A DNA stretch of 64,000 bases from an uncultured Planctomycetaceae bacterium (GCA_963833985.1 CAWIAD010000001.1:832001-896000); one strand, 5' to 3'; positions 10,426-27,699 are shown, counted from the stretch's first letter. The notes: generated by a model from the letters alone, not told the origin. Numbers and translations: made by a program.

Positions 10426-10800
10426 TCACGCACGAGGTGGCTGCGAGTCCTCCTTGGCGGTCCCTCGGGTTGCGTCAGGATAGCGGCTTTCCAGGTCGTT
10501 CAGATAGCGGTTGATCTGGTAGAGGCTCTGCTTGTGAATTTGAGGAAAGCGCCTCTCAAACCAGTTCTCCACCTTGCCGAAGGCCTTCGGCCAGAGCACC
10601 AGGCCACCCGCGATGGCCGCCGGCGTGCCGACCACGCCAGGCAAGATGAAGCCCAGCACGCCCACGGTCATGAGCATCACGCCCACTTCCCTGGGTAAAT
10701 CCTTGATGCGACCGAGTTCCGCTTCTTCTTCCAGCGTGAGCTGCGGCCCCGCCTCGGCGTGCGAGGCGGAATCGGCCACAGGCGGAACCGGCTCGCCCAT
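10426..10800 (-). CDS. Small membrane protein with a glycine-zipper hairpin; N-terminus may extend to 10895 across a frameshift
   Basis: VGVMLMTVGVLGFILPGVVGTPAAIAGGLVLWP hydrophobic hairpin; GGAGG RBS before TTG at 10895; last gene of the ATPase operon. Confidence 0.7.
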   Translation of the reverse strand: MGEPVPPVADSASHAEAGPQLTLEEEAELGRIKDLPREVGVMLMTVGVLGFILPGVVGTPAAIAGGLVLWPKAFGKVENWFERRFPQIHKQSLYQINRYLNDLESRYPDATRGTAKEDSQPPRA

Positions 10801-10921
10801 GCCCGGCGCTGCGGCCGCGCCGCGCCCACATCATGACCGGGTGCTTGTGGCTCCTCTCTCTCGTCGACCGAACTGAGAACGGCTTCCGGAATCAAGATGC
10901 CCTCCGTTGTTGAACAGCAAG

Positions 10922-13419
10922 TCAGCCGGCGATGCGCGACTCCCGCCGCCTCGAGACCCGGGTGAGCTGCTTTTCGAGGCCCCTGACGGCGGCCGAGGTT
11001 CGTGCGTAGGTGCTATAGGTTCCGAGGTTGGTGATCACCACACTGGTGAGCGAGGAGAAGCCCATGAAAAACGCGCCGGCCACGCAGACGAGGTTGGGAA
11101 TCCAGGCCGAGCCCTGTGCCGCCAGCACGCGCCGGCGATGAATTTGCGAGACCTCGTCGAGCGTGCCGAGTCTGGACAGGTCGGGCTGGAGCAGCACGAT
11201 CCCCGCCGGGTTCCGTTCCAGGTTCTCCAGACCGGCTGGATCAATCGAGATCGCCACGTCGGCGGCACGGGCAGCCGGGCCGCGGCGCAGACATTCCCCC
11301 ACGTAAGCGACCTTGAGCCCACGGCGCTGACAGCCGCGGAAGAGCTGGACCAGATCCGGGGTTGCCAGGCTGCCGTGCTGGAAGTCCACACCCAGGCCGG
11401 CCGCGAGCTGTCGGAAGCGGGGCCCGTCCTGCTCGGAGACGAGACCGATGGCCAGGGGATGCCGCAGCTTCCCGCGGATTTCGCTGAGTGCGGTGGCGGC
11501 CGCCAGGCGCGGCGAGCGGCGGAAGTCGATCAGTCCCGCGATCTGTCCGTTGATGCCGACCATCAAGGAATCCAGCGGCCGGTCCTCGACCCGCCCGCGG
11601 GCCTCCGCGGCCTGCCCCGGGGCCGGTCCCTGGCCCCCCAGGTTGCCAACCTTGATCACCTGTTCGTTGTGCACGAGCGTCACGTCCGTGCCGTAGGTGG
11701 TCGGAATTCGGTCCAGCAGGGTGATCCGCCGGGCGCGGCAGGCCGCGTGCAGCGCTGCGGCCCGTTCGTCGTCCAGCTCGCGCAGGGCCGAGGCCGCGTA
11801 CCGCAGCACCTGGAACTCGGTCTGACCAGGGAAGACGCGCACCGACGAGACTTCGGGCTCGAAGATCTCGAGCGCGGCGTGGTGATCCAGGAACAGCACG
11901 TCGACCTTGGCCAGCCGACCGATGGCCTCCGGATCGCGGACCACGATTCCGTGCTGGAAGCAGAGCGAGAGCGCCTGGAGATTTTCCAGGGGGTAGGCCA
12001 GGCCGGGGCCAGACGCGTAGTCGGTATCAAGGATCGCCAGTGCCATCGGAGCACCGCCCAGGGTCAGTCCCAGGCCGGCGGCCGCCAACGTTGGCACCAC
12101 TGTCGGCGTGGCGAACTGCTCGCCCTTGACGGTCGGGGTGCGCAATCCCGGCGGGTGGTTCGCCGCGACGAGTGCGGTCCGCGCCAGCTGCGCGGCCCGA
12201 CTCTTCGCGCCCAGCCAGGCAGTCTCCACCTCGAAATCACCGCTGAGCACGATCGAGCCGGCGTAGACGGCCTCGTCGGGTCCCTTGCGGGTCATTCCCC
12301 GCGCGCCCCGGACCACGCGCTCGTCGAGGAGCCCGTACCCCTTGATGATCCGCCCGTCGACACAGACCTTCTCGCCGGCCGAAACCCGGATCACGTCGCC
12401 GGCAACGAGCCGCTCCGCGGGGACCTCGACCTCAACCCCTCCGGCAGCCTCGACCCGGGCATAGCGCTGGTGCTGCGTGACCTCGCCCAGGAGCCTCCTG
12501 CGGGCGCTGGCAAGCTGTTGCTGGTACTGCCGCTTCCACAGCCGCAGCATCCAGCTCATCGTCGCCCAGGGGAGAAACGTACCGGTCGCCAGGGTGCCCG
12601 CGGCGATGCTCGAGTAGATCACCGGCAGGCCAAGCTGGCCGCGGCCAACCTGGTTGGCCGCGATCCGGAAGACCCGCAGGTTCGCCCCGACCACCAGCGC
12701 CGCGGCCGCGGGCCAGACGGCCGGGACGAAGAAATCGCTGACGATGGACACGGCCACGGCCGTGTTCACCAGGCCAAACCGCACCGGTGAGCCCTCACCG
12801 CCGGGGCCGAGCTCGACCGGCAGCGACTCGGGCGCGGCCTCGAGGGCGCGCAACAGGCGGTCGGGCGCGTCTGCGACGGGTCGAAGCGGATCCGCAGCGT
12901 CCCGGAGAACGGACGCAGCACGCTGCTCTTGACCCCGTGTACCGATTCCAGTTGATGAGCGATCCGCTGCCCCAGAGCGGCGTCGGCCGTGACGGTCTCG
13001 TGCCGCAGGCAGAGGACACCAGGCTGCTCGCCGACGATCTCCCAGGTCGAGAGCATTCCGCGGTTGCGGTGGATTTTCAGCCTGGGCCTGCTGAGGTCGG
13101 AGGCCAGGAGCACCACGGCCTGACGGCCCGGCGCCGGCTCGGCGTTTCCCCGCAGCGCGAGGGCCAGGTGCTGGAGCAGATCCGCACGCTGCCGCCCCCC
13201 CTCGAAATGGATCAGTGCCGTCGCACAGGAACGGTCGATGTCGACGGTGTGCACCTCCTCCACGGAGAAGGCGCGCACCAGAAAGCGGCCGCACAGCTCG
13301 GCTCCTGCCGTGGAGATGCCGAACATCTCCTCGTCGCGCAGCCGGAGAGTCTGCGGGCCCCAGCTCACATGCACCGGGGAGGGTTTCAAGGCGGATCCGG
13401 AAGTCTTCACGTCCAACAC
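10922..13419 (-). CDS. Catalytically degenerate P1B-type ATPase paralog, split by one frameshift near 12870
   Basis: ORF 12766-13419 (two HMA-like domains) joins ORF 10922-13294; colinear with the 14564-17212 ATPase, but TGES reads RGAR, DKTGT reads DHHAA and GDGIND reads GECLRR. Confidence 0.8.
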
Positions 13420-13443
13420 ATCACGCTCCAGCCGAGCGATTGC

Positions 13444-13653
13444 TCATCGGCCCTGGCCCGTAGCCAGAAATGGCTTCAGCTCGCCGCTTTCGACCCACTG
13501 TTCCAGGACGGTGGCGATCTGGCTCTCCTCGCGGTCGAACACGTTGAAGATGGACCTGAGCTTGTGCCGCTGGCGATTCACCTCCAGCCCGAAATAGCAG
13601 AGGATCAGCGAGGCCACGAGAATCGGCAGAATGGGAATACCTTCTTCATTCAC
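13444..13653 (-). CDS. Small single-TM hypothetical protein (69 aa)
   Basis: IPILPILVASLILCYFG TM followed by an amphipathic helix; GAGG RBS; packed within the operon. Confidence 0.7.
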   Translation of the reverse strand: MNEEGIPILPILVASLILCYFGLEVNRQRHKLRSIFNVFDREESQIATVLEQWVESGELKPFLATGQGR

Positions 13654-13687
13654 TGGTCTGACCTCACAGAAATCCCAGGAAAGCCAA

Positions 13688-14219
13688 TCAGAGTAATTCC
13701 AGCGATGCTTCGGACGCCTCCCGGAGCAATTTCACCATGTTTCCCAGCCCTTCCCGGTGCAGCTCACGCTCGACCTCGCACGACAGGCATTCCGCCGTCC
13801 GGTGCGTGGCCACGAACTTGAGGAACTCCTGCAACTTCACCAGGGCCTGCTCGGGATTCTTGATGATGCCCAGGTTCAGGCGGAAGCCGTGATAGTTGGC
13901 CTTCTCCCTGGGCGGCTTGCTGAGGGGGCGGTAGATATCATAGACGAGGATCATGGGATCGCGGCCGATGTGCTCGGGCGCGCTTCAGCACGTTGATCGA
14001 CTGCTCCCGGCTGAGGATGTAAACCGGGTCCTGGGGATGATAATGGTGGAACAGGGGCATGTGTTCATGAAGCACCTTCGAGACCGGCCCGTTCCAACCC
14101 GTATCCACCAGGAAGATATGAAACCGCGGCGATTCCGGGGTGAGCGGCTCCTCGCGGCTCCTGGGACGGAGCTTGAACCGTGACTCCTTCGTCGACTCAT
14201 TACCCGATCGCTCAGTCAT
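13688..14219 (-). CDS. Soluble hypothetical protein, frameshifted near 13980
   Basis: ORF 13938-14219 (FHIFLVDTGWN...) joins ORF 13688-13954 via ...VLKRA/EHIGRDPMILVYD. Confidence 0.7.
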
Positions 14220-14277
14220 GGTTGAAGCTCCGGCAGAAAAGAGAGCAACGCGCGATCGGTCAGGGGAGACAGGCGGC

Positions 14278-14589
14278 TCACAGGTTCAGGTCGTTGGCGA
14301 TACTGTCAATGAACTGCACGGCCACCTTGCGGTTCTCGTTCGTGGCCAGCACCTTGGCGGCCAGGGAGAGCTCGGCGTCTACCCGCATCGTCTCCTTGGT
14401 GAACTGGACGATGAACGACAGCCATCTCGTCTTGATTGTCATCTCGGGCTTGGCCGGGTTTTCCAGCAGCTCGGACGGGACCGGAATCTCGTGCTTGCGG
14501 CGCTGGTACTCGGAGCGTATGGCCTCCATGGTGGGACTGTCCACGGGGCGCTTGAGCGGCCGCTCATACAGCTTTTCTCGCCAGGCCAT
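14278..14589 (-). CDS. Hypothetical protein (103 aa) overlapping the ATPase 3' end
   Basis: Typical codon usage, GAGG RBS, operonic position. Confidence 0.7.
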   Translation of the reverse strand: MAWREKLYERPLKRPVDSPTMEAIRSEYQRRKHEIPVPSELLENPAKPEMTIKTRWLSFIVQFTKETMRVDAELSLAAKVLATNENRKVAVQFIDSIANDLNL

Positions 14590-17212
14590 AAGCTTGCCTC
14601 ATCTCCTGTTCGTGCTTCTTCTCCGCCTCGATCTGGGCAATCTTCCGGAGCGGCATCATGCCGTTGGCCAGGGCGCCAATCGCCGAGACGTTGTTGGTGA
14701 TCACCGAGGCCATGATCCCGAAACCCATTGTAAAGACGCCCGCGATGCAGGCAATGTTCGGTATCAGGATCATGGTCCAGCTGCGCTTCACGTTGTGGTC
14801 AAGGTCCTTCGCGATGTCACGCAAATCGCAGAGCTTGGACAGGCCCTGCTCCATGAACACGATATGGGCCGTGTCCGTCGCGATCGAGGAGGCCCCGCGC
14901 AGCGAGATCGACACGTTCGCCTTCTTGAGGGCGATGGAATCGTTGATCCCGTCGCCCACGAAGCAGACCTTCTTGCCCTCTTTCTGCAATTTCGCCACGT
15001 AGTCGGCCTTGTCCGCCGGCAGAACCTGGGCGAAGTACCGGTCCATCCCCAGCGTCTCGGCCAGCTTGCGCATGGGCGCCTCGTGGTCGCCGGAAATGAT
15101 TGCCAGGTGCTTGATGCCCCGCGCCCTCAGCCCAGCGACGATGTCGCGAACTTCCGGCCGGACCGCCGCGTGCAGCTCGATCGCCCCGCCGACCTCGCCG
15201 TCCACGCCCACCAGCACCATCGTGTGGCCCTCACCGTGCGCCTCCTCCAGCGCCTGGCGAATCTCGGTGCACATCGGCAGACCTTCCAGCTCCATGAACC
15301 GCTTGCTACCGACGCGAATCATCCGTCCATGAACGTGCACGGTGATCCCGTAGCCAACCTTGTACTGCGTGTCGTCGGTGGGAGGAAGCTCGAAACCCAG
15401 ATCCTTGGCTTTCTGAAGGATGGCCAGGGCGATGGGATGGTGGAACTTCTTCTCGGCCGCGGCCGCGTACAGCAGGATCTCGTCGGCAGTCTGCCCCGGG
15501 GCGGCGATCACGCGGCCGACCTCGGGACGTTCCCGCGTGAGCGTGCCCGTCTTGTCGAAGAGGACCGTATCCACCTCGTTCATCAGTTCCAGGGCCCGGC
15601 CGTCCTTCACCAGTATTCCCTTGGTGGCGCACAGGGCCAGCGAGCTGAGCATCGCCAGCGGGGCGGCCATGCGGATGCCGGTCCCGAAATCGCTGTTCAG
15701 TACGGCCACTGCGCCGAAGGGGCCCATCGTGGCCATGCCCACCGCGCCGATGGTCAACGTCGGGATCACCGCCTTGTCGGCGAGGATCTCCCCCTTATGC
15801 TGCGAGCTGAGCTTGTAGCCGGCCGTGTCATTGAGAATCTGGCTGATCTTGGCCGACGCCGTCTCGCTGCCGGATTTCTCCACGGACACGAGAATCTTGC
15901 CAGCCACCAGCAGCGTCGACGCGAACACCCGGTCGCCCACGCCCTTCTCGGCCGGCGTCGATTCGCCGGTCAGTGCGTGCTGGTCGATCATCGCCAGCCC
16001 CTCGGCGATGATGCCGTCCACCGCGACCACCTCGCCGGTGTTCACCACGATGATGTCTCCGGCCGCCAACCGGTCCAGCGACACCTGCACCTCGACGCCG
16101 TCGCGATAGAGCCAGACGAACCGCGGCTGCTTGCCGAACGCATTCAGGAGCAGCTTCTTGGAGTTATCCTGCGTCTTCTTCACCAGCACCCGGCCGAAGC
16201 TCAGGCACCAGCAGAGCACGGCACCCGGGAAGATGGACAGCGTGGCCAGGCAGCCAACGACCACGATGGCATCGAGCACGTCCACGCCCAGCCGCTTGTC
16301 GACGGTGAGCACCTCGCGGGCGTTCTTGAACGTGGGGATGGACGTGTAGGCGAAGAGTCCGGCAGCCACCGGCAAGAGCCCTGGCGCGGCGAACTGGGCC
16401 ACGGCGGCCACCGGAATCGAGATCGTGCAGAGCGGCAGATGCAGGTCAGGACGGTCCTTGTGGGCAGGATGCTCGGCCGCGGCGAGGGCGGCCTCGATGA
16501 TCTCGATGATCTGGTCCCGCGTCAGCTCCTTGATGTCATATTGCACCAGCACCGTGGAGGTGAGCGGATTGGTCTTGTAGGAATCAATCCCCAGCACGCT
16601 CATGAGCTCGCGCTCGATGGCCTGGCAGAGATCGGACTTGCGGTGGATCAGCGGGTTCTTGATGCGGAGCCGGCCGGGGATGTCCTGCTTGATTTCCCAG
16701 TTCGTGATCGACGAGCCATAGCGGAAGAAGCGGATCTGGCCCTGCTCGTTGCGGATCGGCGTGACCCGGCTGATCGCCACGCCGTGCGGCGCTCCGTTCG
16801 GGGACGCGGGGGGGGTTCCCGGTCGAGACGGCAGGGCAGCCTCCGGTTCGGTCCGGCTCTCGTTCGGTGCCGTGGCCGCATGTTGTTCCGGGGTGGAAAC
16901 CGCCGTTGCATCCGCAACCGTGTGGACAACCTGGCCGGCCCCCTGCGGTTCACGGGCCCGGTCCGGGTCCAGGCAGGTGGTGATCCGCTGTACGACGTCG
17001 TCCAGTGTGAAGGATCGGGGACAGAAGCGCAGCTCCGCGTGGGGCATCTCCCCGTTCTTGCGATGTGAATTGATCGTGACGTCGGTGATCTCCGGCGCCT
17101 GGAAGACGCGCTCCAGGAACTGCCGGCAGGTCTCGTTGCCCGGCTCGGCGAAGAGGTGCCGGCTCTCGAGGCGAATCTGACCCTGGCCGGGGAAGCTGAT
17201 CGCGATGTCCAT
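14564..17212 (-). CDS. Heavy-metal-type P1B ATPase without a CPx motif (FezB-like), with two Cys-pair-free HMA-like N-terminal domains
   Basis: TGES, DKTGTLT, HP, SGD and GDGIND intact; TM motif NSDFGTGIRMAAP; N-terminal FPGQGQIRL and IPGRLRI domains. Confidence 0.92.
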   Translation of the reverse strand: MDIAISFPGQGQIRLESRHLFAEPGNETCRQFLERVFQAPEITDVTINSHRKNGEMPHAELRFCPRSFTLDDVVQRITTCLDPDRAREPQGAGQVVHTVADATAVSTPEQHAATAPNESRTEPEAALPSRPGTPPASPNGAPHGVAISRVTPIRNEQGQIRFFRYGSSITNWEIKQDIPGRLRIKNPLIHRKSDLCQAIERELMSVLGIDSYKTNPLTSTVLVQYDIKELTRDQIIEIIEAALAAAEHPAHKDRPDLHLPLCTISIPVAAVAQFAAPGLLPVAAGLFAYTSIPTFKNAREVLTVDKRLGVDVLDAIVVVGCLATLSIFPGAVLCWCLSFGRVLVKKTQDNSKKLLLNAFGKQPRFVWLYRDGVEVQVSLDRLAAGDIIVVNTGEVVAVDGIIAEGLAMIDQHALTGESTPAEKGVGDRVFASTLLVAGKILVSVEKSGSETASAKISQILNDTAGYKLSSQHKGEILADKAVIPTLTIGAVGMATMGPFGAVAVLNSDFGTGIRMAAPLAMLSSLALCATKGILVKDGRALELMNEVDTVLFDKTGTLTRERPEVGRVIAAPGQTADEILLYAAAAEKKFHHPIALAILQKAKDLGFELPPTDDTQYKVGYGITVHVHGRMIRVGSKRFMELEGLPMCTEIRQALEEAHGEGHTMVLVGVDGEVGGAIELHAAVRPEVRDIVAGLRARGIKHLAIISGDHEAPMRKLAETLGMDRYFAQVLPADKADYVAKLQKEGKKVCFVGDGINDSIALKKANVSISLRGASSIATDTAHIVFMEQGLSKLCDLRDIAKDLDHNVKRSWTMILIPNIACIAGVFTMGFGIMASVITNNVSAIGALANGMMPLRKIAQIEAEKKHEQEMRQAYGLARKAV

Positions 17213-17454
17213 GAATGCCCCTGATGACTGTTCGAGCCGTTCGGGTATGCCCCGTCGTCCTTGCCGTCAGTACCGCCTGCCGCGCCGGCAGGCGCACGGG
17301 AATCTCCGCGCGCGGTGATCGAACTGGAACCGCTCCTGTCCAGATGTCGGTCGTTGCCGGACCCCGGCTTGACTTGCCTTCACAGGAAGAAATCGATTGC
17401 AGGTTGGTCGTGTCGCAAGAAAGTGGTGGAGAGCTGTGGCCCCCCGGGATGGGT

Positions 17455-17733
17455 CTAGGTCGCGGTCGTGGCCTCGGCAGTACCGCTGGGCGTTGTGGCC
17501 CCGGCGCCGGATTGTTTCATCTCCGCCATCGCGTCCTGAACGGCTTCCACCTTCTCCGCCACCTTTTTCGCCATCTCGGAGTACGATTCGCCGAACGCCG
17601 CGCCGGCCCCGGCGAGCGCCCCGGAGAGCAGGGGCGCGAATTTTTCCTTCATGGCCGGGTAATTCGCACCCGCCACGGCACCGATGACGAGGCCGGCGGT
17701 GAAGAACATGGCTTCAGATCGAGTCATGGGCAT
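17455..17733 (-). CDS. Small GxxxG membrane protein, FezA/DUF5132-like
   Basis: FTAGLVIGAVAGA...PLLSGALAGAGAAFG...VAEKVEAVQDAMAEMK; immediately upstream of the P1B ATPase. Confidence 0.65.
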   Translation of the reverse strand: MPMTRSEAMFFTAGLVIGAVAGANYPAMKEKFAPLLSGALAGAGAAFGESYSEMAKKVAEKVEAVQDAMAEMKQSGAGATTPSGTAEATTAT

Positions 17734-17851
17734 CAGGGTCTGACTCCGGCGCGTGAGATCCAATCGGTTTTCAGGTGAGCGCGTCTCTCAACAGTATCCG
17801 AGATCAGGCGCGACTCGTCGAGAGAATCGCCAACCGGGTATGGCTCGCCGC

Positions 17852-18214
17852 TCACGACTGGGCAATGGCCGGCGTTGCTTCGGCGGAGCCGCCTTCAAGC
17901 TTTCGTTTCTTCATCTCGTCCACCATGTCCACAGCGGCATTGGCCCCGTCAATCAGCCCGTGGACAATCGGATTGTTCTTGGGCACGGACCGAGCCACCA
18001 GTATGGACGGGAAGACCACTCCGTAGGAAATCGTATAGCACGTCGTGTATACGAACCGCGAAACGAACTGGTTCACCGCCGGCAAGGCCTGGTCCACTCT
18101 CTGCCGGGCGTCGGCTGCCCCATCCCTGGCCGCCTGCACGGCCTGCTCCATGGCATCGGCCACCGTTTTCAGTGGGTCGCTCGCATGGGTCCCCACCGTG
18201 GAATTGTCACTCAT
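17852..18214 (-). CDS. YxISYGVVFP-motif small protein, paralog 1 (first gene of the ATPase operon)
   Basis: VYTTCYTISYGVVFPSILVARSVPKNNPIVHGLIDGA; paralogs at 20648 and 26350. Confidence 0.8.
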   Translation of the reverse strand: MSDNSTVGTHASDPLKTVADAMEQAVQAARDGAADARQRVDQALPAVNQFVSRFVYTTCYTISYGVVFPSILVARSVPKNNPIVHGLIDGANAAVDMVDEMKKRKLEGGSAEATPAIAQS

Positions 18215-18305: not shown

Positions 18306-18689
18306 TCGCTGCCCCTATACTCAAGTGCGCCTGCCAATCGTTGCACGCGGCTTCGTTTCGCGTACTCTGATCGGCAAAACAACACGCGGAAAAGAGAAAC
18401 TGCAAAAAAAGGATAAACTACGCGGTTTATGAGGTCAAGTCGTATTCTTGCCAGTCTCCTCAACGCAAATCCGTTCTTGCCAATGATTTCAGCAATCCCT
18501 TCCGGACCGTGATCAGAGCTTCGGCAGGCTCGGAGGTTGAGTATCGATACTGTGACCGCAGTGCTCACGCTGCCCGGATATCCTTCGTTCCCTCCACAGA
18601 GTCGTATCGAAAAAACGGGTCCTATCCAGGCATGGAGCTGGGAATGTCATTCCTGCATCGTGTGGGCGGCCTATTCGGCCGCCGATCGT

Positions 18690-19358
18690 TCAATGCCCCG
18701 TCTGGGACATGGGTGCATCGAGCGGCTTGGACTGGGGCGACCCATCCTGCCTCAAGAAGATAGATAGCACAACCATCGCCCCCAGCGCCAGGAACTCGCT
18801 CTGGTAGTTCTGCAACGACTGGAACCAGAAGGTTGAAGTCGTGAGGAAGCCCACGAACGAAACGGCCGCCTCGCCGTGCTGGACCTGCTCGACGTTGTAC
18901 TCGAGCCGGCCCCCGACCGCATGGGCGAGGAACGACATGATGAAGAGTGCGAAGAAGGCGATGGACAGAGAGTGCGCATAGACCGCCCGCACCCAACCCC
19001 CTTGGCGGGCCGGCCAGGGCGCATCGGGTCCGCTCGACCGTGCCTGCCCCCCACTGCCCGAGGAACCATCAAGCTTCTTGGAAACGGCCGAACCCTTCTG
19101 AAACAGGAATGCGGCGAACAGGACATTGCAGCCCATCTGCAAGAACTCGCTCTCCCAGTTCTCGAAAATGGCTTCGATGTTCTGGCCGCAAACGAGGTAA
19201 TCCAGGTAACTCAGAGGCGAGAGCCCAAGCTGTGTGCGCTGCTGGTTGTAGGTGGCCTGCCCCACGATCGTCTGACCGACCAGAAAAACCGCGAAGAGTG
19301 CAAACAGAGTGATCGACAGGCCATTCTCCCGGAGAATTCGCATCATGAGACTGCTCAC
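18690..19358 (-). CDS. DUF6766-like membrane protein
   Basis: ENGLSITLFALF, IFENWESEFLQM, FWFQSLQNYQSEFL, LRQDGSPQSKP; internal duplication. Confidence 0.75.
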   Translation of the reverse strand: MSSLMMRILRENGLSITLFALFAVFLVGQTIVGQATYNQQRTQLGLSPLSYLDYLVCGQNIEAIFENWESEFLQMGCNVLFAAFLFQKGSAVSKKLDGSSGSGGQARSSGPDAPWPARQGGWVRAVYAHSLSIAFFALFIMSFLAHAVGGRLEYNVEQVQHGEAAVSFVGFLTTSTFWFQSLQNYQSEFLALGAMVVLSIFLRQDGSPQSKPLDAPMSQTGH

Positions 19359-19409: not shown

Positions 19410-20207
19410 TCAATCCGTTAGCTGGTCCGTGAAGCGCGGAAACCAGCGGCGAAGCGGAGCGACAACCCGATCCCCGGCCGCTCGAGCCCACTCCCCGCTG
19501 CGGGGGGGCAAGCCTCTTCGCCAGCGAGGATAGGCCAGGCAAGCCAGGACGATGAGCCCCACAAAGAGCACGTGAACCGGCACGCCGGGCATGCCGCCCA
19601 TCAGGGAGGCCGTTTTGCCGGGTGTGGAATGTCCCGATGCGGCCGTGAGATCGCTCCAGAACATCTCGCCCGCCGTCACGGCCAGAACCAGGGCTCCCGC
19701 CGAGACGATCCACTTGAAGCGCGCCATGAGCTCGACGATGGCCGTGCTGAAGATGAAGATCATGAGTCCGGAGATCAACAGCCCCAGGCCCATGCGGATC
19801 GGGTCTCCGCGGCAGATGCTGGCGACGGCAACGACGTTGTCGAAGCTCATCGCCAGATTTGCCAGGGCAATGCGCAGGATCGATGCGCCCATCCTGGAGC
19901 GGCCCTCTGTTCCGACGCCAACCTCGGGAGCAGACTCCTCCTGCATGAGCTTGCAGGCAATGATCAAGAGCAACACCGCACCGGCGAGCCGTAGCCCGGG
20001 AACGCCCAGCAGGTCGGCGATGAGCAAGGTGAAAACCGCTTGCATCGCAACCGCAAGGATCCCTCCCCAGAGCACAACCCGGCGCCGTTGCCGTGCCGGC
20101 AGGTTGTGAGCCGCCAGCGCGATGACAACCGCGTTATCGCCGGACAACGCGACATTGATCAGGGAAATCTCGAGAACCGAGAACGTATAAACAAGAATTG
20201 CATCCAA
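19410..20207 (-). CDS. TerC/YjbE-family putative metal transport membrane protein
   Basis: INVALSGDNAVVIALAAHNLP and LAMSFDNVVAVA motifs; TTG start at 20207 preceded by GAGGA. Confidence 0.85.
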   Translation of the reverse strand: MDAILVYTFSVLEISLINVALSGDNAVVIALAAHNLPARQRRRVVLWGGILAVAMQAVFTLLIADLLGVPGLRLAGAVLLLIIACKLMQEESAPEVGVGTEGRSRMGASILRIALANLAMSFDNVVAVASICRGDPIRMGLGLLISGLMIFIFSTAIVELMARFKWIVSAGALVLAVTAGEMFWSDLTAASGHSTPGKTASLMGGMPGVPVHVLFVGLIVLACLAYPRWRRGLPPRSGEWARAAGDRVVAPLRRWFPRFTDQLTD

Positions 20208-20279
20208 CGGGACTATCCTCGGACTTTGCGACACTCTCGCTCGGCATCGACGCGCCCGAAGCGAAGGCTTGCTCAACAA

Positions 20280-20295
20280 TGCAAAACAGGTGCCG
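20280..20295 (-). promoter_or_regulatory. Putative sigma-54 promoter of the TerC-DUF6766 unit
   Basis: Minus strand CGGCAC-CTGTT-TTGCA. Confidence 0.6.
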
Positions 20296-20525
20296 CGGCT
20301 TTGTTTAACGGGGGGGGCGGGCGGCACAGCTTCAGCGGGCAGAGCCGCCGCGAGTCAACCGTGTTTATCGCTATTTTGATGCAGAAGTGTTCTCGCGGAC
20401 GCGCAGGGCGATTCCCGGCGATGCCTCCGTGAAATGAATTTCTGTTTATTAACAAATATTATGTGGTGACGGGCCCGCGAAATCGTCTCTATTGCCAGAG
20501 TCAGAACCCGCGTACCACGGGGTGC

Positions 20526-20541: not shown

Positions 20542-20647
20542 TCGCTTTTACGGCGGTTCATGCCGTGAGCCGGACCCGGGGCGGTCGTCCCGGAGCCAGC
20601 TCAGTTCGCGTCTGATCACGCAGGAAAGAGAAGAAAGAGGCAATTCC

Positions 20648-21088
20648 ATGGCAGAACATGCCACGACAGATTCGCCCTCGGTTGCTGATGGCGCGCGCAG
20701 TGGTGGAGAAGCCGTCGTGAGTGACGCCCTGGCGTCGGCCCGCGAGGGGCTCTCCGGGATGATCCCCCAGCGCCAGGGCGTTCTTGGACGCACGGTCTAT
20801 TCCACGTCGTATGCGATTTCCTACGGCGTCGTCTTTCCCACCATGCTCGTGGCCCGCGCGCTACCCAGGGACAATGCACTCTTCCACGGCCTGGCCGACG
20901 GGGCAGAAGCTGCGCGCGAACGGGTTTTCGGCTGGGAAGACAGCCAGGAGCACGAAGAGACGGCCGGCTCGGAGGAGGCCGGGCAGAGCGAGGGAGACTC
21001 CGATGGCGAGGGACAAGAAGCCACTCGCGGATCCTCACGGAACCGCCGTCGCGGCCGTCAGCGCGGGGGCGCAAATCCTCCCGGTGAG
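20648..21088 (+). CDS. YxISYGVVFP-motif small protein, paralog 2, with an acidic then basic tail; 3' end uncertain (ORF track runs to 21250)
   Basis: VYSTSYAISYGVVFPTMLVARALPRDNALFHGLADGA; probable frameshift in the G-run near 21070 giving ...RKSSR*. Confidence 0.75.
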
Positions 21089-21144
21089 CCGGCTGCTCGC
21101 GTGGCCGCTCGCCCGGTATCCCGCGGTCGACAGGGCTCGACGCA

Positions 21145-21924
21145 TCATGCGGAATTGATCCGCAGCGGGTTCGAGGTGCCGTCGAGCACGAGCGTACCTC
21201 TGAAAATGATGGAGACGTTGCCCCTCCCCCACCCGCTGGCATGGAGATAGCCGCCATTGCCCGGGTGATAGATGAGCTGGATGGTCCCCGAGCCGGAAGC
21301 GTTGGCGAAGGCTCCCGAGCTGGCCGAGGTGACGATCCAGTTCAGCGTTGTGGGCCGCCCGTTGGGCGGCTGGCTGGGGTCTCCGGAGATCTGGACGATG
21401 ATGAAGCTTCCGGTCATGAGAAAGCTCTTGGGGTAAAGCGTGGCAGAGCCACTGGGGCCCTGCGATGCCGAGGACGGGGTCTGGAACCCTAGCTGGATGT
21501 TGCCGTGCAGAAATGCGGTCGAATTGCCGCCGGCATTCGCATATGTTTGCGAGATGTCGCCGGTGAACCGCGGCGGACCTATGATGTACGGCCCGTAGAA
21601 GACCGCGACGAAGTTCTCGCGCAACTGCTCGTGGGGCGTCGGCGCTCCTGAAACCTGCGAGACGGTCGAGGAGTTGCTGGACACGGCCCCCTGGAGGTTC
21701 AGTTGTGTCGAGCCCAGGGAGAACGCGGGACTCTGGCTTGAGCCCGTGCTCGCGTTGGCGGAGGGAGTTGCACTGGTCTGCGCCTGGACGACGGCGCTGT
21801 GCCTGCGTGTGTGAGCGGGCGCCGGGCGTGCCAGACCGTGGAGCGACGATGGCAACTCGCGCTGTTCCAGGAGCTCGATGAGCGGGCCGATCGGCTGACC
21901 GGGACCTGTTCTCTTTCGTTTCAT
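21145..21924 (-). CDS. Putative exported protein with a planctomycete extracellular N-terminal motif
   Basis: MKRKR...IELLEQRELPS, Ser-rich linker, beta-rich C-terminal domain. Confidence 0.7.
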   Translation of the reverse strand: MKRKRTGPGQPIGPLIELLEQRELPSSLHGLARPAPAHTRRHSAVVQAQTSATPSANASTGSSQSPAFSLGSTQLNLQGAVSSNSSTVSQVSGAPTPHEQLRENFVAVFYGPYIIGPPRFTGDISQTYANAGGNSTAFLHGNIQLGFQTPSSASQGPSGSATLYPKSFLMTGSFIIVQISGDPSQPPNGRPTTLNWIVTSASSGAFANASGSGTIQLIYHPGNGGYLHASGWGRGNVSIIFRGTLVLDGTSNPLRINSA

Positions 21925-21947: not shown

Positions 21948-23845
21948 TCAGGGCATGATCCGTAAACCAATCGCCGTGTTCAGGCTCAACGTGTCTTGCC
22001 GGTGCTGGAGCAGGATGTTTCGATAATGCTGAACCACCTGGTTGTACTCCTGCTGCTGGCTGGTGTACTGGTCAATCTTCGACGGGTCCTAGCGGTAATC
22101 CTGAAAGGCCAGGTCGCGCGTCCGCCGGGCGGCCGGCAGCACTTCCTGCTCCATCTCGCCGATCGACTCGCGGCTCAGCTCGAAGCTGCGGATCGCGTCC
22201 GCCGCCTCGTCGAGGACCCGCCGCTCCATCGACCGCAATTCAAGCTGGGTTTGCGACACATTGGCCTGGGCCAGCATGATGTTGCCCTGGTTGCGGTTGA
22301 AAACGGGCAGCGCCGCATTGATGCCCACCGCCCACGAGTACGTGTCCTTGGTGCCGAACGCCCGACCCGACTGGTCGGTGTACGGCTGGTAAACAAGGTA
22401 GACGTCAGAGGCGCGGTTGGCCCTGGCCAGCCGCACCTCCGATTCGGCCCGGCTCAGCGCAAGCCGGTATGCGGCCAGGTCGGGACGGGAATCGACCGCA
22501 GTCTGGACCAGTTGCTCGGCCGACATGGGCAGTTCCCGGATCTCCCGCAGCGAACCGCGCAGCTCCAGCCGTTCGGCATCTTGCGGGGGAATGTTCAGCA
22601 TGCGAGCGAGCTGGCGCTTCGAACGAGCCAGCATTTGCAAGGATTGCTTGAGTTGAAGCTGCGCCTGCCGCGCCTGGTTCCGAAGATATGCCACAGCATG
22701 TGATGCGTCGGCTTGATCCTTCCAGGCCTTCTGCCTGGACTGGTCGGTCGTGCGCGGGTTGTTCTGGAGGCTACGGGCCTGGGTCTCTTTTTGCGCGACC
22801 GGGCCTCCGCCCGGTCGAGGATGCGCTGGATGCCTTCTTGCAGGGCATGCCCGAAGCGGACGTTCGCCCGCGATGCGAGAACGTTGAGATACGCCGTGTA
22901 CAGCTCGTCGATCATCTTCCGGGCGTAATCCTGCAACTGTGCCTCGGTCACGCGCCTGGCCCGCTCGGCCACCTCGACCCGCGCCGGCCACTTGCGGGTG
23001 ATGTCGATCGGAATCGTCACATTGACGCCATATTGCGGCTGGCCGCCACTGCCGCCGGGACGCGAGACAGAGTAAGTTCCATAGGGAACGAGCTGGCTGC
23101 TGCCATTGATGATCGGGTTCGAGCGCAATCCCGCCGTGAGAATGTCGGCGTCCGACTTTGTGAGCTCGAAACGGAGGGCCATCATGTCCAGGCTTTGCTG
23201 AATCAAGAGCTCGATGGCGCGGTCCAGAGTCAGTCCATCGGCCGGCCCGAGTTCATCCTGCCGTGCTGGAACCTCCATGGCGGCCCGCGACCCCAGGGTG
23301 ACCGGATCAAAACCGGAGCGCTGGATCTCCTGACGATTGGCCTGGATCTCGTTACGCAGGCTCTTCCGCACCGAGTCGAAGCTGAGCGGGTCTGCTCCAC
23401 GGCCAGAGCGGGCCAGCAGTCCCGATGAACCCACGCTCGCACCGGTGCGCCGTTCTCGGCTTGACGGCACGGTGTTTGACGCGTGCGCCCCCGGGGCACC
23501 CAGCGGCGGTCCAATCGTCGATTCGTCGGGATCCGGTGAGCCAGGGTCGCCTGGCAGCCGTGGCAAGAGCGGCGACCCCAGCGCCTCGCCTCCGCGTGCC
23601 CGTCCGCCCGACATGCCGCCGAAGTCGTCCATCTGGGTGGACGCCTGCCCGGATACGCCTGTGGGTCGCGAGGATCCGCGTGGGACGGCCGCGGTACCCG
23701 GGCCGCCTCCGCCCTGACTGCCGGGCGGGCCGCCAGCGCCAAGATTCAGCCCCTGAGCGCTTGCCGTGCCGGGACAATGGCCAGTCATCAGCATCGCCAG
23801 GCACGAGGTTAGGGTCAGGATCCGGCAGAACGGCACTCTCGACAT
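21948..23845 (-). CDS. TolC/CzcC-family outer membrane efflux protein, interrupted by a frameshift near 22790 and an in-frame TAG at 22089
   Basis: Signal peptide, long low-complexity N-terminus, LTLDRAIELL, ADILTAGLRSNP, SRPDLAAYRL, LPVFNRNQGNI; the frame continues past the TAG to ...LNTAIGLRIMP*. Confidence 0.8.
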
Positions 23846-26014: not shown

Positions 26015-26350
26015 TCAGTGCGTGGCGGGCGCCGCCGTGACGCTGGCCTGCCCGAGCATGGCGTCCACACGCAGGCTGGCGGCGTGGGCTCCGTCCATCA
26101 GGCCGCGGACGGCGGCATTCTCACGCGGGATGGCGCGGGCCAGCAGCGCGGCCGGGAAGACAACGCCGTAAGAAATGGCATAGGTCGTCTGGTACAGGGC
26201 GCGAGCAAGGACCAGGCTGGTGTTCGCCAGTGCCCGGTCGGCCGCCGCCCGGGCGTCCATGGCGCCATTCCTGGCGGCCGTCGCGACCAGGTCGAATGTC
26301 CCCGATACTGAATCCACACCCGTACCGGCCGCTGCCGTCATGTCCGACAT
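26015..26350 (-). CDS. YxISYGVVFP-motif small protein, paralog 3 (upstream of cax)
   Basis: LYQTTYAISYGVVFPAALLARAIPRENAAVRGLMDGA; GGAGG RBS. Confidence 0.8.
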   Translation of the reverse strand: MSDMTAAAGTGVDSVSGTFDLVATAARNGAMDARAAADRALANTSLVLARALYQTTYAISYGVVFPAALLARAIPRENAAVRGLMDGAHAASLRVDAMLGQASVTAAPATH

Positions 26351-26636
26351 GGAGGACCTCCTGGTCGTCATTCTTTCCCGGAACAACACGCTCAGAGCAA
26401 TATCTTACCTATTTTGCCTCATGACCGCAAAGACACCACAGGATCGATTATGGTGAGGCGGTGGGCTCAGACCCAGCACGGCGTGGTTTATCCGGCAAAA
26501 TCCATACGTTTGGCTTCGCAGCCTTGTCTGACCGTAGTGGCGGCCTGATCATGATAGTAAGGGGACGCGCTTCGACGGCTCCATTGTGACCTTCCCGGTC
26601 AGGCTCCCCGAGACCCCTGGATTGCAGGAGCTCCAC

Positions 26637-27699
26637 ATGCGTTACCACCTCCGAATGTTGGTCCTTCCTTTTGTCGCCCTCTGTATCCTGCCTTCCATGG
26701 CCAGTGCCCAGTGGATGTACCCACGCGGCTATGGCGGTTACGGCATGAGCCGCTGGGGAGCGGACCCGGCGTCCGGGTACATGGCTGGACTGGGCGCGTA
26801 TGCGCGGGCAGGGGGTTTACGCGCTGCAAAAGGCCCAGGCCGACTCCATCAATCTGGAGACGATGATCAAGTGGAACAAGGCTCTGCGGGAGCGCCAGCG
26901 CGCACTTCGCGAGCAGAAGCAACAGGAGCAAGCCAGCAAGGAGGCGGCCCGCGAACGAAGGGTTGCGGACCTGGAGTTGAAGGACGGTACGACGCTGAAT
27001 AACCTGCTGCTGGAGATCCTCGACGCAGACCCCGCGGTGGCAAGGTCGAGCCGGGCGAAAATGCCTGTGAGCACGGCTGCGATCCGCGAGATCCCGTTCG
27101 AGTGGGATTCCGAGGCACTCACCATCTGTCTTGACCAGATGACCGGTGAGGACTCGCTTCCCGACATTCTGATGCGGCCGGAGTACACCGAGCAGCGCAA
27201 TGCGCTTCATGCCGCGGTCAAGCCCGCGCTCGAGGAAGACGCCCGGGGTGATGTTTCGGCCGCGACGCGCCAGCGGATCGACAAGGCCGTCGCGGACTTC
27301 CGCGCCACGTTCATGAAGAACGCCTCCGAGTTCACCCCGGGATACCAGGACGCCCTTGATTATTTCACCACGATGGCCAGCCTCAACCGGCTGCTCAACG
27401 ACCCGAGCATGAAGGCATTTCTGGATCAGCTCGAAGACACGAAGCAGAGCACCGTCGGCAACCTGGTGGCATTCATGAATGCCTATAACCTACGCTTCGG
27501 AGCCACCACCTCGGATCGGCAGGTCGAGATTTACTCTCAGCTCTTGCCGGGATTGGTCGCGCTCCGCAACGAGATCGCCAGCCAGCACGCACAGGCCTCG
27601 AACGCGGACCGTTCGGGTGCAGGGCTGAGGTCCGCCGCCAGGGCGGCCTTCAAGGGAATGAACTGGCAGGAGCTCCAGGCTCAACAGAAAGGCAAATGA
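26637..27699 (+). CDS. Secreted hypothetical protein, frameshifted near 26805
   Basis: Signal peptide ending in ASA-Q, YGGYG segment, joins helical ORF 26800-27699. Confidence 0.7.

Follow-up and report, generated by a model that had tools for sequence, protein, structure and literature searches.

An operon of planctomycetes and methanotrophs that pairs an active P1B-type ATPase with a catalytically dead paralogue, with Ca2+ as its probable cargo

In a window of 64 kb (the whole stretch of DNA analysed, 64,000 nucleotides of the uncultured Planctomycetaceae bacterium GCA_963833985.1, CAWIAD010000001.1:832001-896000), eight co-oriented genes, g1 to g8, run on the minus strand from position 18214 down to 10426 in an operon-like arrangement. 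They encode an active P1B-type ATPase (g3), a full-length and catalytically dead paralogue of this pump (g7) and six small proteins. The gene cluster is real and conserved, though apparently unstudied, and its gene order, which recurs in planctomycetes and methanotrophs, is not due to chance. Judging from its ion site and its genomic neighbours, the g3 pump probably carries Ca2+. That a ferrosome-like, scaffolded pump pair handles this Ca2+ and delivers it to a membrane-bounded store is a more tentative reading, drawn from sequence comparisons.

Conservation and synteny

Sixty-five loci were compared: 47 from a scan with g3, labelled mostly as Isosphaeraceae or Planctomycetota, plus Methylococcaceae and one Pseudomonadota metagenome-assembled genome (MAG), and 18 methanotroph loci chosen via g5. 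Loci were considered as well flanked when at least 6 kb were available on each side of the pump, which was the case for 43/65 (26 planctomycete, 17 methanotroph). In these 43 loci, g1 was present in 40, g8 in 38, g5, g6 and g7 in 37 each, g4 in 23 and g2 in 11. The core is therefore g1-g3-g5-g6-g7-g8, with g2 and g4 as planctomycete additions. The g5 count is partly circular because 15 of the 43 loci were chosen through this gene; in the 26 planctomycete loci, chosen by the pump alone, g5 was found in 20 and g7 in 21. Another set, chosen from metagenomes by the dead pump, comprised 80 loci, of which the 22 of at least 9 kb were counted and the 58 shorter ones left out; the active pump was present in 21/22.

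The sequence-only reading had described eight co-oriented genes in this order and had not recognised the gene set as described. All eight genes were found as stated, the small genes co-occur across two phyla in the well-flanked and metagenome loci, and the operon was not found described in the literature searched, a search lying outside most subscription papers.

A profile of g5, taken as marker gene, matched 40/86 genomes of the host family (Isosphaeraceae), 32/151 Methylococcales genomes (one of the 32, G531, being flagged unpublished) and 0/300 other Planctomycetota genomes sampled; despite this last figure, a MAG labelled Schlesneria (L036) carries g5. Relatives of the pump occur in the cultured planctomycetes Paludisphaera borealis, Aquisphaera giovannonii and A. 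insulae. On a plasmid of Methylobacterium radiotolerans (L050:7197-10136), g1 lies upstream of a pump that reads TGEA for TGES, and the two genes adjoin ExoD, MucR and CYTH genes near one end of the sequence retrieved.

The active pump

The product of g3 (14564-17212, minus strand, 882 aa) scores above the TIGR01525 cut-off and its predicted structure folds as a P1B ATPase. It has two N-terminal ferredoxin-like domains, the second of which is of the HMA_2/CoBaHMA type with an Arg-rich PGRLR motif (HMA_2 matches were found in 0/14 control genomes), followed by eight membrane helices bearing NSDFGTG in M4, PN in M5 and NNVSA in M6. The catalytic motifs TGES, DKTGT, HP and GDGIND are kept and, in an alignment with CopA, DFGTG takes the place of CPC, in agreement with the earlier description of an intact non-CPx P1B ATPase. 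Among the 43 active homologues, DKTG, TGE[S/A] and HP are each present in 43/43, and GDGxND in 42/43.

FezB (P1B-6), the ferrosome pump, is defined by D[Y/F]SCA and HNxxT (bioRxiv 10.1101/2020.01.10.902569). Neither D[Y/F]SCA in M4 nor HNxxT in M6 was found in any of the 43 active homologues, in which the corresponding columns read D[F/L/M]GTG and NN[V/A][A/S]A in 43/43; the Cys and His of the FezB transport site are therefore replaced by Thr and Asn. Residues N506, D508 and T511 (M4), N819 (M5), and N840 and N841 (M6) are invariant in 43/43, as are R514 and M515. Oxygen-only ion sites favour Ca2+, Mg2+ or Mn2+, and this site is one of the grounds for proposing Ca2+ as the cargo.

Phylogenies were inferred on 30 sequences, with a root protein that we take to be KdpB-like from its motif; compared with a quick tree of 56 sequences, 26 rows, including long-branch ones, were omitted, and the two topologies match. 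The canonical CPC/SPC pumps diverge earliest, followed by three FezB-type proteins, by DFGTG pumps of cyanobacteria and Deinococcus, and by the dead and active clades, which are sisters (support 100/100). The sister-to-FezB placement has a support of 98/93. In approximately unbiased (AU) tests, a clade uniting the active pump with the three FezB-type references was rejected (p 6.6e-4), these references being motif-defined plasmid proteins, one of which reads DYACP, and none being the experimentally studied ones. A clade uniting the active pump with the canonical pumps was rejected as well (p 4e-5). A canonical heavy-metal exporter (P1B-1, -2 or -4, of the CopA, ZntA or CoaT types) was discarded on this test and on the lack of CPC/SPC in M4; the pump thus stands apart from canonical Cu, Zn and Cd pumps, as expected by the sequence-only reading, inside a wider FezB-related branch. 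In the available text of a review of the seven described P1B subtypes, none has the g3-type motif (PMC13460109).

The dead pump

In g7 (10922-13419, minus strand, about 832 aa), DKTGT has become DHHAA, and TGES, HP and GDGIND are missing from an otherwise full-length protein. None of its 38 homologues has DKTG, TGES or GDGxND, so the degenerate P1B paralogue noted earlier is a dead enzyme throughout the family. The membrane motifs are kept, D[Y/F/W]x[S/T]G in 36/38 homologues and PN[L/I]xC in 33/38. The dN/dS ratio of g7 was 0.08-0.30 in 9/9 pairs, that of the active pump being 0.03-0.14 in the 6 pairs available, and a decaying pseudogene was rejected at the family level on this basis. The g7 protein is a conserved pseudo-pump that arose by duplication of g3. 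The active and dead clades both divide into planctomycete and methanotroph groups, and g3 and g7 have therefore been inherited together. Dead paralogues in cyanobacteria nest within the cyanobacterial DFGTG clade, which indicates an origin independent from that of g7. We infer that the g3 and g7 pumps are in physical contact.

Both g5 (frameshift near 13980) and g7 (frameshift near 12866) are split into two open reading frames (ORFs) in the window. In the related locus L001 they are single ORFs of 177 aa and 832 aa. Most family members with a match likewise have g5 in an uninterrupted frame, and separate genes g5a/g5b and g7a/g7b were rejected, each pair being one ORF in close relatives. The source genome also holds a second DxGTG pump copy (G000:C2:1089017-1091445; L049, L061), which is frameshifted, 72% identical in its core and has no partner genes nearby. 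True frameshifts, and thus an operon decaying in the source strain whatever its role elsewhere, would account for two breaks in the operon and one in this second copy on contig C2. This explanation is most improbable: both breaks of the operon lie within short GC repeats and unrelated genes of the assembly (two contigs, 10.16 Mb) are also broken, for which reasons they are likely, though not proven, to be assembly errors.

Comparison with ferrosomes and effluxosomes

The sequence-only reading had likened the operon to ferrosome (fez) clusters and suggested a divergent metal-storage or biomineralization compartment. In these clusters, FezB loads an organelle, the ferrosome (Grant and Komeili, bioRxiv 10.1101/2020.01.10.902569), and several likenesses to them are seen: a P1B pump from the same broad branch that lacks CPx, an Arg-rich N-terminal domain with PGRxR, a tight operon, a small GxxxG membrane protein, and a second P1B ATPase, as in the larger fez clusters. 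Unlike FezB, however, g3 lacks D[Y/F]SCA and HNxxT and belongs to a separate sister clade; the second ATPase is here catalytically dead and duplicated from the first; and the core proteins g1, g5, g6 and g8 are unmatched to Fez proteins. The g3 class may fall under what the same preprint, in the portion available, calls "related P1B-ATPases", or under FezH.

A divergent ferrosome building iron-phosphate granules would fit the sister position to FezB and the likenesses just listed, together with the phosphate genes that adjoin a small number of methanotroph loci (5 with Ppx-GppA, 3 with PHO4, 2 with polyphosphate kinase). It is nevertheless quite improbable. Besides the absence of both FezB motifs from the active homologues, neighbouring genes are calcium-related rather than iron-related: 17 + 94 neighbour proteins, a sample of recurring clusters, included no member of the Feo, ferritin, Fur or TonB families, the lone FeoB_N match being an HflX-type GTPase, and FeoA was matched only in the FezB control and in no other locus. 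Fur boxes were not enriched in 51 upstream regions; Pho boxes scoring at least 11/14 occurred in 3 of these, versus 0-3 in 20 shuffles, which is no enrichment either. The hosts of the g3 operon are aerobes. Those of fez clusters are described as mostly anaerobes (bioRxiv 10.1101/2020.01.10.902569), a further point against iron. Fez membership was rejected on the motifs, the AU test and the lack of recurring iron genes among the neighbours scanned; the part of the sequence-only reading that implied the fez family or an iron cargo is not supported. As an observation on the controls, a fez-like cluster on a Cereibacter plasmid (L054:5959-8070) has a pump reading DYACP for DYSCA and adjoins FeoA and TonB-dependent receptors.

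In mycobacteria, PacL (DUF1490) forms effluxosomes with CtpC, CtpG and CtpV; CtpC is a FezB-related plain exporter that needs small single-pass scaffolds, and CtpH and CtpI carry degenerate P-type-like N-terminal halves (PMC13460109). As in the PacL-Ctp systems, a FezB-related pump stands here alongside small membrane proteins. Unlike them, the operon has no DUF1490 match and its dead pump is a separate P1B gene, whereas the Ctp pumps keep CPC/APC and are described as exporting Zn, Cd or Cu (PMC13460109). The module would work in a ferrosome- or effluxosome-like manner, as a FezB-related pump organised by small membrane proteins, and lies outside fez by its defining features.

Calcium-linked neighbourhood

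The system extends past 10426-18214 and includes a cax gene for a Ca2+/H+ exchanger (PF01699; 24783-25910, minus strand), 6.6 kb from the operon, and two g1 paralogues. One of these (26018-26389, minus strand) lies directly upstream of cax, an arrangement shared with L003, and the other (20639-21250, plus strand) between cax and the operon. The window cax is 82% identical to the cax genes of L001 and L003, which precede the operon there by 2-4 kb; in both loci the stretch from cax to the operon is shorter than in the window. Two cax genes are present in the whole 10.16-Mb genome. A cax gene was found within about 10 kb in 23/43 well-flanked loci (11/26 planctomycete, 12/17 methanotroph) and in 6/22 of the counted metagenome loci; none was found in the three FezB-type loci. 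Other recurring neighbours in the well-flanked set encode CoBaHMA-DUF454 (9/43), EcsC (11/43) and DUF1345 (4/43) proteins. An LCIB-type beta-carbonic anhydrase is encoded in 4/18 methanotroph loci, and its gene immediately follows cax in L087, L088 and L095. In the source genome, a CoBaHMA-DUF454 gene lies away from the operon (L063:7306-8532; G000:C2 near 3437500).

These gene sets overlap with those of calcyanin loci. The Microcystis calcyanin neighbourhood is reported to hold cax, CoBaHMA-DUF454 and DUF5132 (bioRxiv 10.1101/2024.07.07.602159), that of Fischerella NIES-4106 cax, two cation ATPases and a carbonic anhydrase (PMC8890360), and that of Cyanothece PCC 7425 cax3-4 and three P-type ATPases (PMC13642857). 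Methylococcaceae, which are among the hosts of the operon, form intracellular calcium carbonate, and ccyA is reported in 39/112 of their genomes (bioRxiv 10.64898/2025.12.07.689555). As in calcyanin loci, cax, CoBaHMA domains, CoBaHMA-DUF454, DUF5132-like small proteins, P-type ATPases and a carbonic anhydrase are thus brought together. Two differences concern the literature: in the calcyanin papers, as far as their text was available, the operon, its pump class and its dead paralogue are undescribed, and Isosphaeraceae are not reported with ccyA.

The nearest sister clade consists of cyanobacterial and Deinococcus pumps (L051, L052, L128, L133, L134), most of which have D[F/I]GTG and NNG[S/T]A. 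Their neighbours include cax, DUF454, DUF5132 and DUF1345 genes, the cyanobacterial plasmid loci of the clade also holding HMA2 genes, and dead paralogues are present. Unlike the pumps of the operon, to which they are about 32-34% identical, these have dead copies that arose separately, and none of g1, g5, g6 and g8 was detected in L051 or L052. Two cyanobacterial loci encode acidic glycine-zipper repeat proteins (L128:14690-15898, L051:14307-14909), one of them fused to CoBaHMA; they have a calcyanin-like layout, with the three-fold Gly-Pro zipper lacking or different, and 23 relatives, mostly in Nostocales.

The small proteins

The most constant partner of the active pump is g1 (17852-18214, minus strand), whose 120-aa product has an amphipathic helix and a hydrophobic YxxSYGVVFP segment, here YTISYGVVFP. 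No named family was found for it in Atlas and no family in Pfam, and a relationship to FezA was discarded as no match was found.

The product of g2 (17455-17733, minus strand) is a 92-aa membrane protein that had been called FezA-like. It has a GxxxG motif and a FezA/DUF5132/PacL-like layout; its similarity to a FezA-type/DUF5132 profile is weak (hhalign E 4e-4, probability 34%), and g2 is accessory rather than core, being present in 15/65 loci, all planctomycete. No match to DUF5132 or DUF1490 was found among 13 g2 homologues, nor to DUF1490 for g1, g2, g6 or g8.

The soluble 103-aa protein of g4 (14278-14589, minus strand), found in 29/65 loci, again only planctomycete ones, gave a lead to a PF09650 (PHA_gran_rgn)-like family (score 0.87). 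A 92-aa conserved gene without Pfam match (L178:7530-7805), seen near the dead pump in 30/80 metagenome loci, may be a substitute for g4.

The g5 protein (13688-14219, minus strand, about 177 aa) founds a new family of 225 representatives at E<=0.001, without Pfam match. Its predicted structure (pLDDT 84) probably has a thioredoxin-like fold: nearly all top ranks in structure searches were thioredoxin folds, the best with a middling score (Z 7.3, rmsd 2.6 A, 87 aligned residues), and no Foldseek match was obtained at E<=0.001. The family has no CxxC and no conserved Cys. In distant homologues (P0208-P0210, P0260, P0268), g5 sits behind a beta-rich N-terminal domain of about 200 aa without Pfam match. 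The 69-aa single-pass membrane protein g6 (13444-13653, minus strand) duplicates and travels jointly with g5, the pair being duplicated in the operon or found alone elsewhere in methanotrophs (L087, L088, L097, L104, L106, L058); in L104, an LCIB-type carbonic anhydrase gene lies about 6 kb from it.

The 124-aa product of g8 (10426-10800, minus strand), a gene that is often duplicated, had been read as a glycine-zipper protein. A membrane hairpin with GxxGxxLPGxxGxP, resembling DUF454/YbaN, seems to fit better, a suggestion based on a weak DUF454 match in one g8 homologue. A stand-alone g8 paralogue (L062:7943-9136; G000:C2 near 2683900) is directly downstream of a gene that is presumably TerC-like, by our judgement of its sequence.

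A role in membrane or lipid handling, in which the stripped site would move either a lipid or a proton-like ion, with internal membranes organised by the CoBaHMA, DUF454-like and helix-grip-like proteins, finds some echo in these proteins. Planctomycete and methanotroph hosts have elaborate internal membranes, g4 leads to a granule-associated family, and some g5 homologues bear the extra N-terminal domain of unnamed family; CoBaHMA domains have moreover been proposed to bind anionic lipids (bioRxiv 10.64898/2025.12.07.689555). Such a role is very improbable, as it leaves unexplained the cax linkage seen in two phyla and in the cyanobacterial sister clade, and as the polar residues of M4, M5 and M6 are retained at ion-site positions.

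Other features of the window

A sigma70-type promoter (TTGACC-17-TATCCT; 18410-18438, minus strand) lies about 195 nt upstream of g1; when 12 upstream regions of Isosphaeraceae loci are aligned, no block is better conserved than its -35 and -10 boxes. The interval from cax to the operon holds a DUF6766 gene (18690-19358, minus strand), a gene for a YjbE-type TerC-family membrane protein (19410-20327, minus strand), which is a candidate associate of the operon, and two ORFs for outer-membrane efflux (TolC-type) proteins (22089-23845, minus strand). A gene without family match (26800-27696, plus strand) is divergent from the pair formed by the g1 paralogue and cax, and occurs in 7 planctomycete loci. 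No Rfam family, riboswitches included, was detected at the gathering level between 9000 and 28000.

Proposed function and alternatives

In the mechanism that we propose, g3 would use ATP hydrolysis to expel a hard divalent cation from the cytoplasm, Ca2+ being the likeliest, along a path whose site would be lined by Asp, Asn and Thr. The dead copy g7 would act as a structural or regulatory partner; g1, g6 and g8, with g2 where present, would cluster the pumps and shape the membrane; and g5, with its Cys-less and probably thioredoxin-like fold, and g4 would serve as soluble adaptors. The destination would be a membrane-bounded store, in which calcium may be held with carbonate or polyphosphate, and the neighbouring Cax exchanger would balance Ca2+ and protons. 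This reading is suggested by the oxygen-only, invariant site, the cax linkage, the CoBaHMA-DUF454 and carbonic anhydrase genes, the cax and DUF454 genes and dead paralogues found with the sister-clade pumps, the overlap with calcyanin-locus gene sets, the organelle-loading function of the sister FezB, the internal calcium carbonate of Methylococcaceae and, for the dead copy, its dN/dS values and the presence of the active pump in nearly all metagenome loci chosen by it.

Several observations weigh against a Ca2+ store. The loci counted include related ones, which are non-independent samples. The membrane helices still contain several conserved Cys, C321 and C336 (M1/M2) being invariant in 43/43 active homologues, and the seven described P1B subtypes are transition-metal pumps (PMC13460109). 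cax is absent from 20/43 well-flanked loci and from 16/22 metagenome loci. Calcyanin, searched by glycine-zipper patterns, PF13436 and homologue search, detectors that had no positive control, was found neither in or near the loci nor in the source genome and five methanotroph genomes. According to the part available of one preprint, ccyA is reported from cyanobacteria and Methylococcaceae and from no other clade, and Cax of bacteria is usually regarded as a Ca2+ exporter (bioRxiv 10.64898/2025.12.07.689555). Deletion of cax3-cax4 in Cyanothece PCC 7425 left carbonate inclusions unchanged (PMC13642857), and the literature searched holds no report of such inclusions in Isosphaeraceae.

A second possibility is a Ca2+ export platform without organelle. 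In this case, an effluxosome-like patch of the cytoplasmic membrane would, together with Cax, hold cytoplasmic Ca2+ at a low level or feed the periplasm. The site chemistry and the cax linkage fit it as well, CtpC with PacL is an example of a FezB-related pump that relies on scaffolds and exports across the plasma membrane, and the usual export role of Cax and the calcyanin result, with its uncontrolled detectors, point the same way. Export gives no reason for the carbonic anhydrase gene of 4 methanotroph loci, for so many conserved small membrane proteins or for the overlap with calcyanin-locus genes. It is a credible, less probable alternative; given a Ca2+ cargo, a membrane-bounded store ranks slightly ahead of simple export.

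Another hard cation, namely Mn2+, Mg2+ or, in methylotrophs, a lanthanide, might instead be exported or stored. Cax proteins can carry Mn2+. The oxygen-rich site, Cax and the nearby TerC gene also fit this ion, which is a further reserve on Ca2+. The TerC/YjbE gene of the window, the TerC-like gene beside the g8 paralogue, a manganese efflux pump gene in a related Nostoc cluster and the Methylobacterium plasmid with g1 and a pump would be in line with such a cargo. TerC is, however, no recurring neighbour across the 65 loci, the window stretch screened with Rfam has no riboswitch, and the neighbour representatives scanned included no recognisable lanthanide-uptake gene. A cation other than Ca2+ is thus considered as unlikely.

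Significance

Calcium loading of bacterial carbonate inclusions is stated to be unknown, Cax alone being insufficient (bioRxiv 10.64898/2025.12.07.689555, PMC13642857); the first of these sources states that the Ca2+ transport step is open and does not use the word "ATPase" in its main text, as far as available. In Methylococcaceae, which have been shown to form carbonate inclusions, the operon provides a specific candidate for this pump. It would also extend the P1B ATPases by a subfamily beyond the seven described, with an oxygen-only site, and by a conserved P-type pseudo-enzyme as partner, of which at least two origins are seen. Specialists would be surprised by a P1B site that lacks both Cys and His and by a dead counterpart kept across two phyla; even if the role is export, neither the pump class nor its dead counterpart has been characterised.

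It is conceivable, although doubtful, that a P1B branch has switched to Ca2+ and that a live and dead pair with small partners builds a calcium-storage organelle, which would be the missing Ca2+ loader for methanotroph carbonate. If true, this would also point, via the sister clade, to the Ca2+-loading machinery of cyanobacterial intracellular carbonate, and calcium inclusions without calcyanin would be expected in nearly half of Isosphaeraceae.

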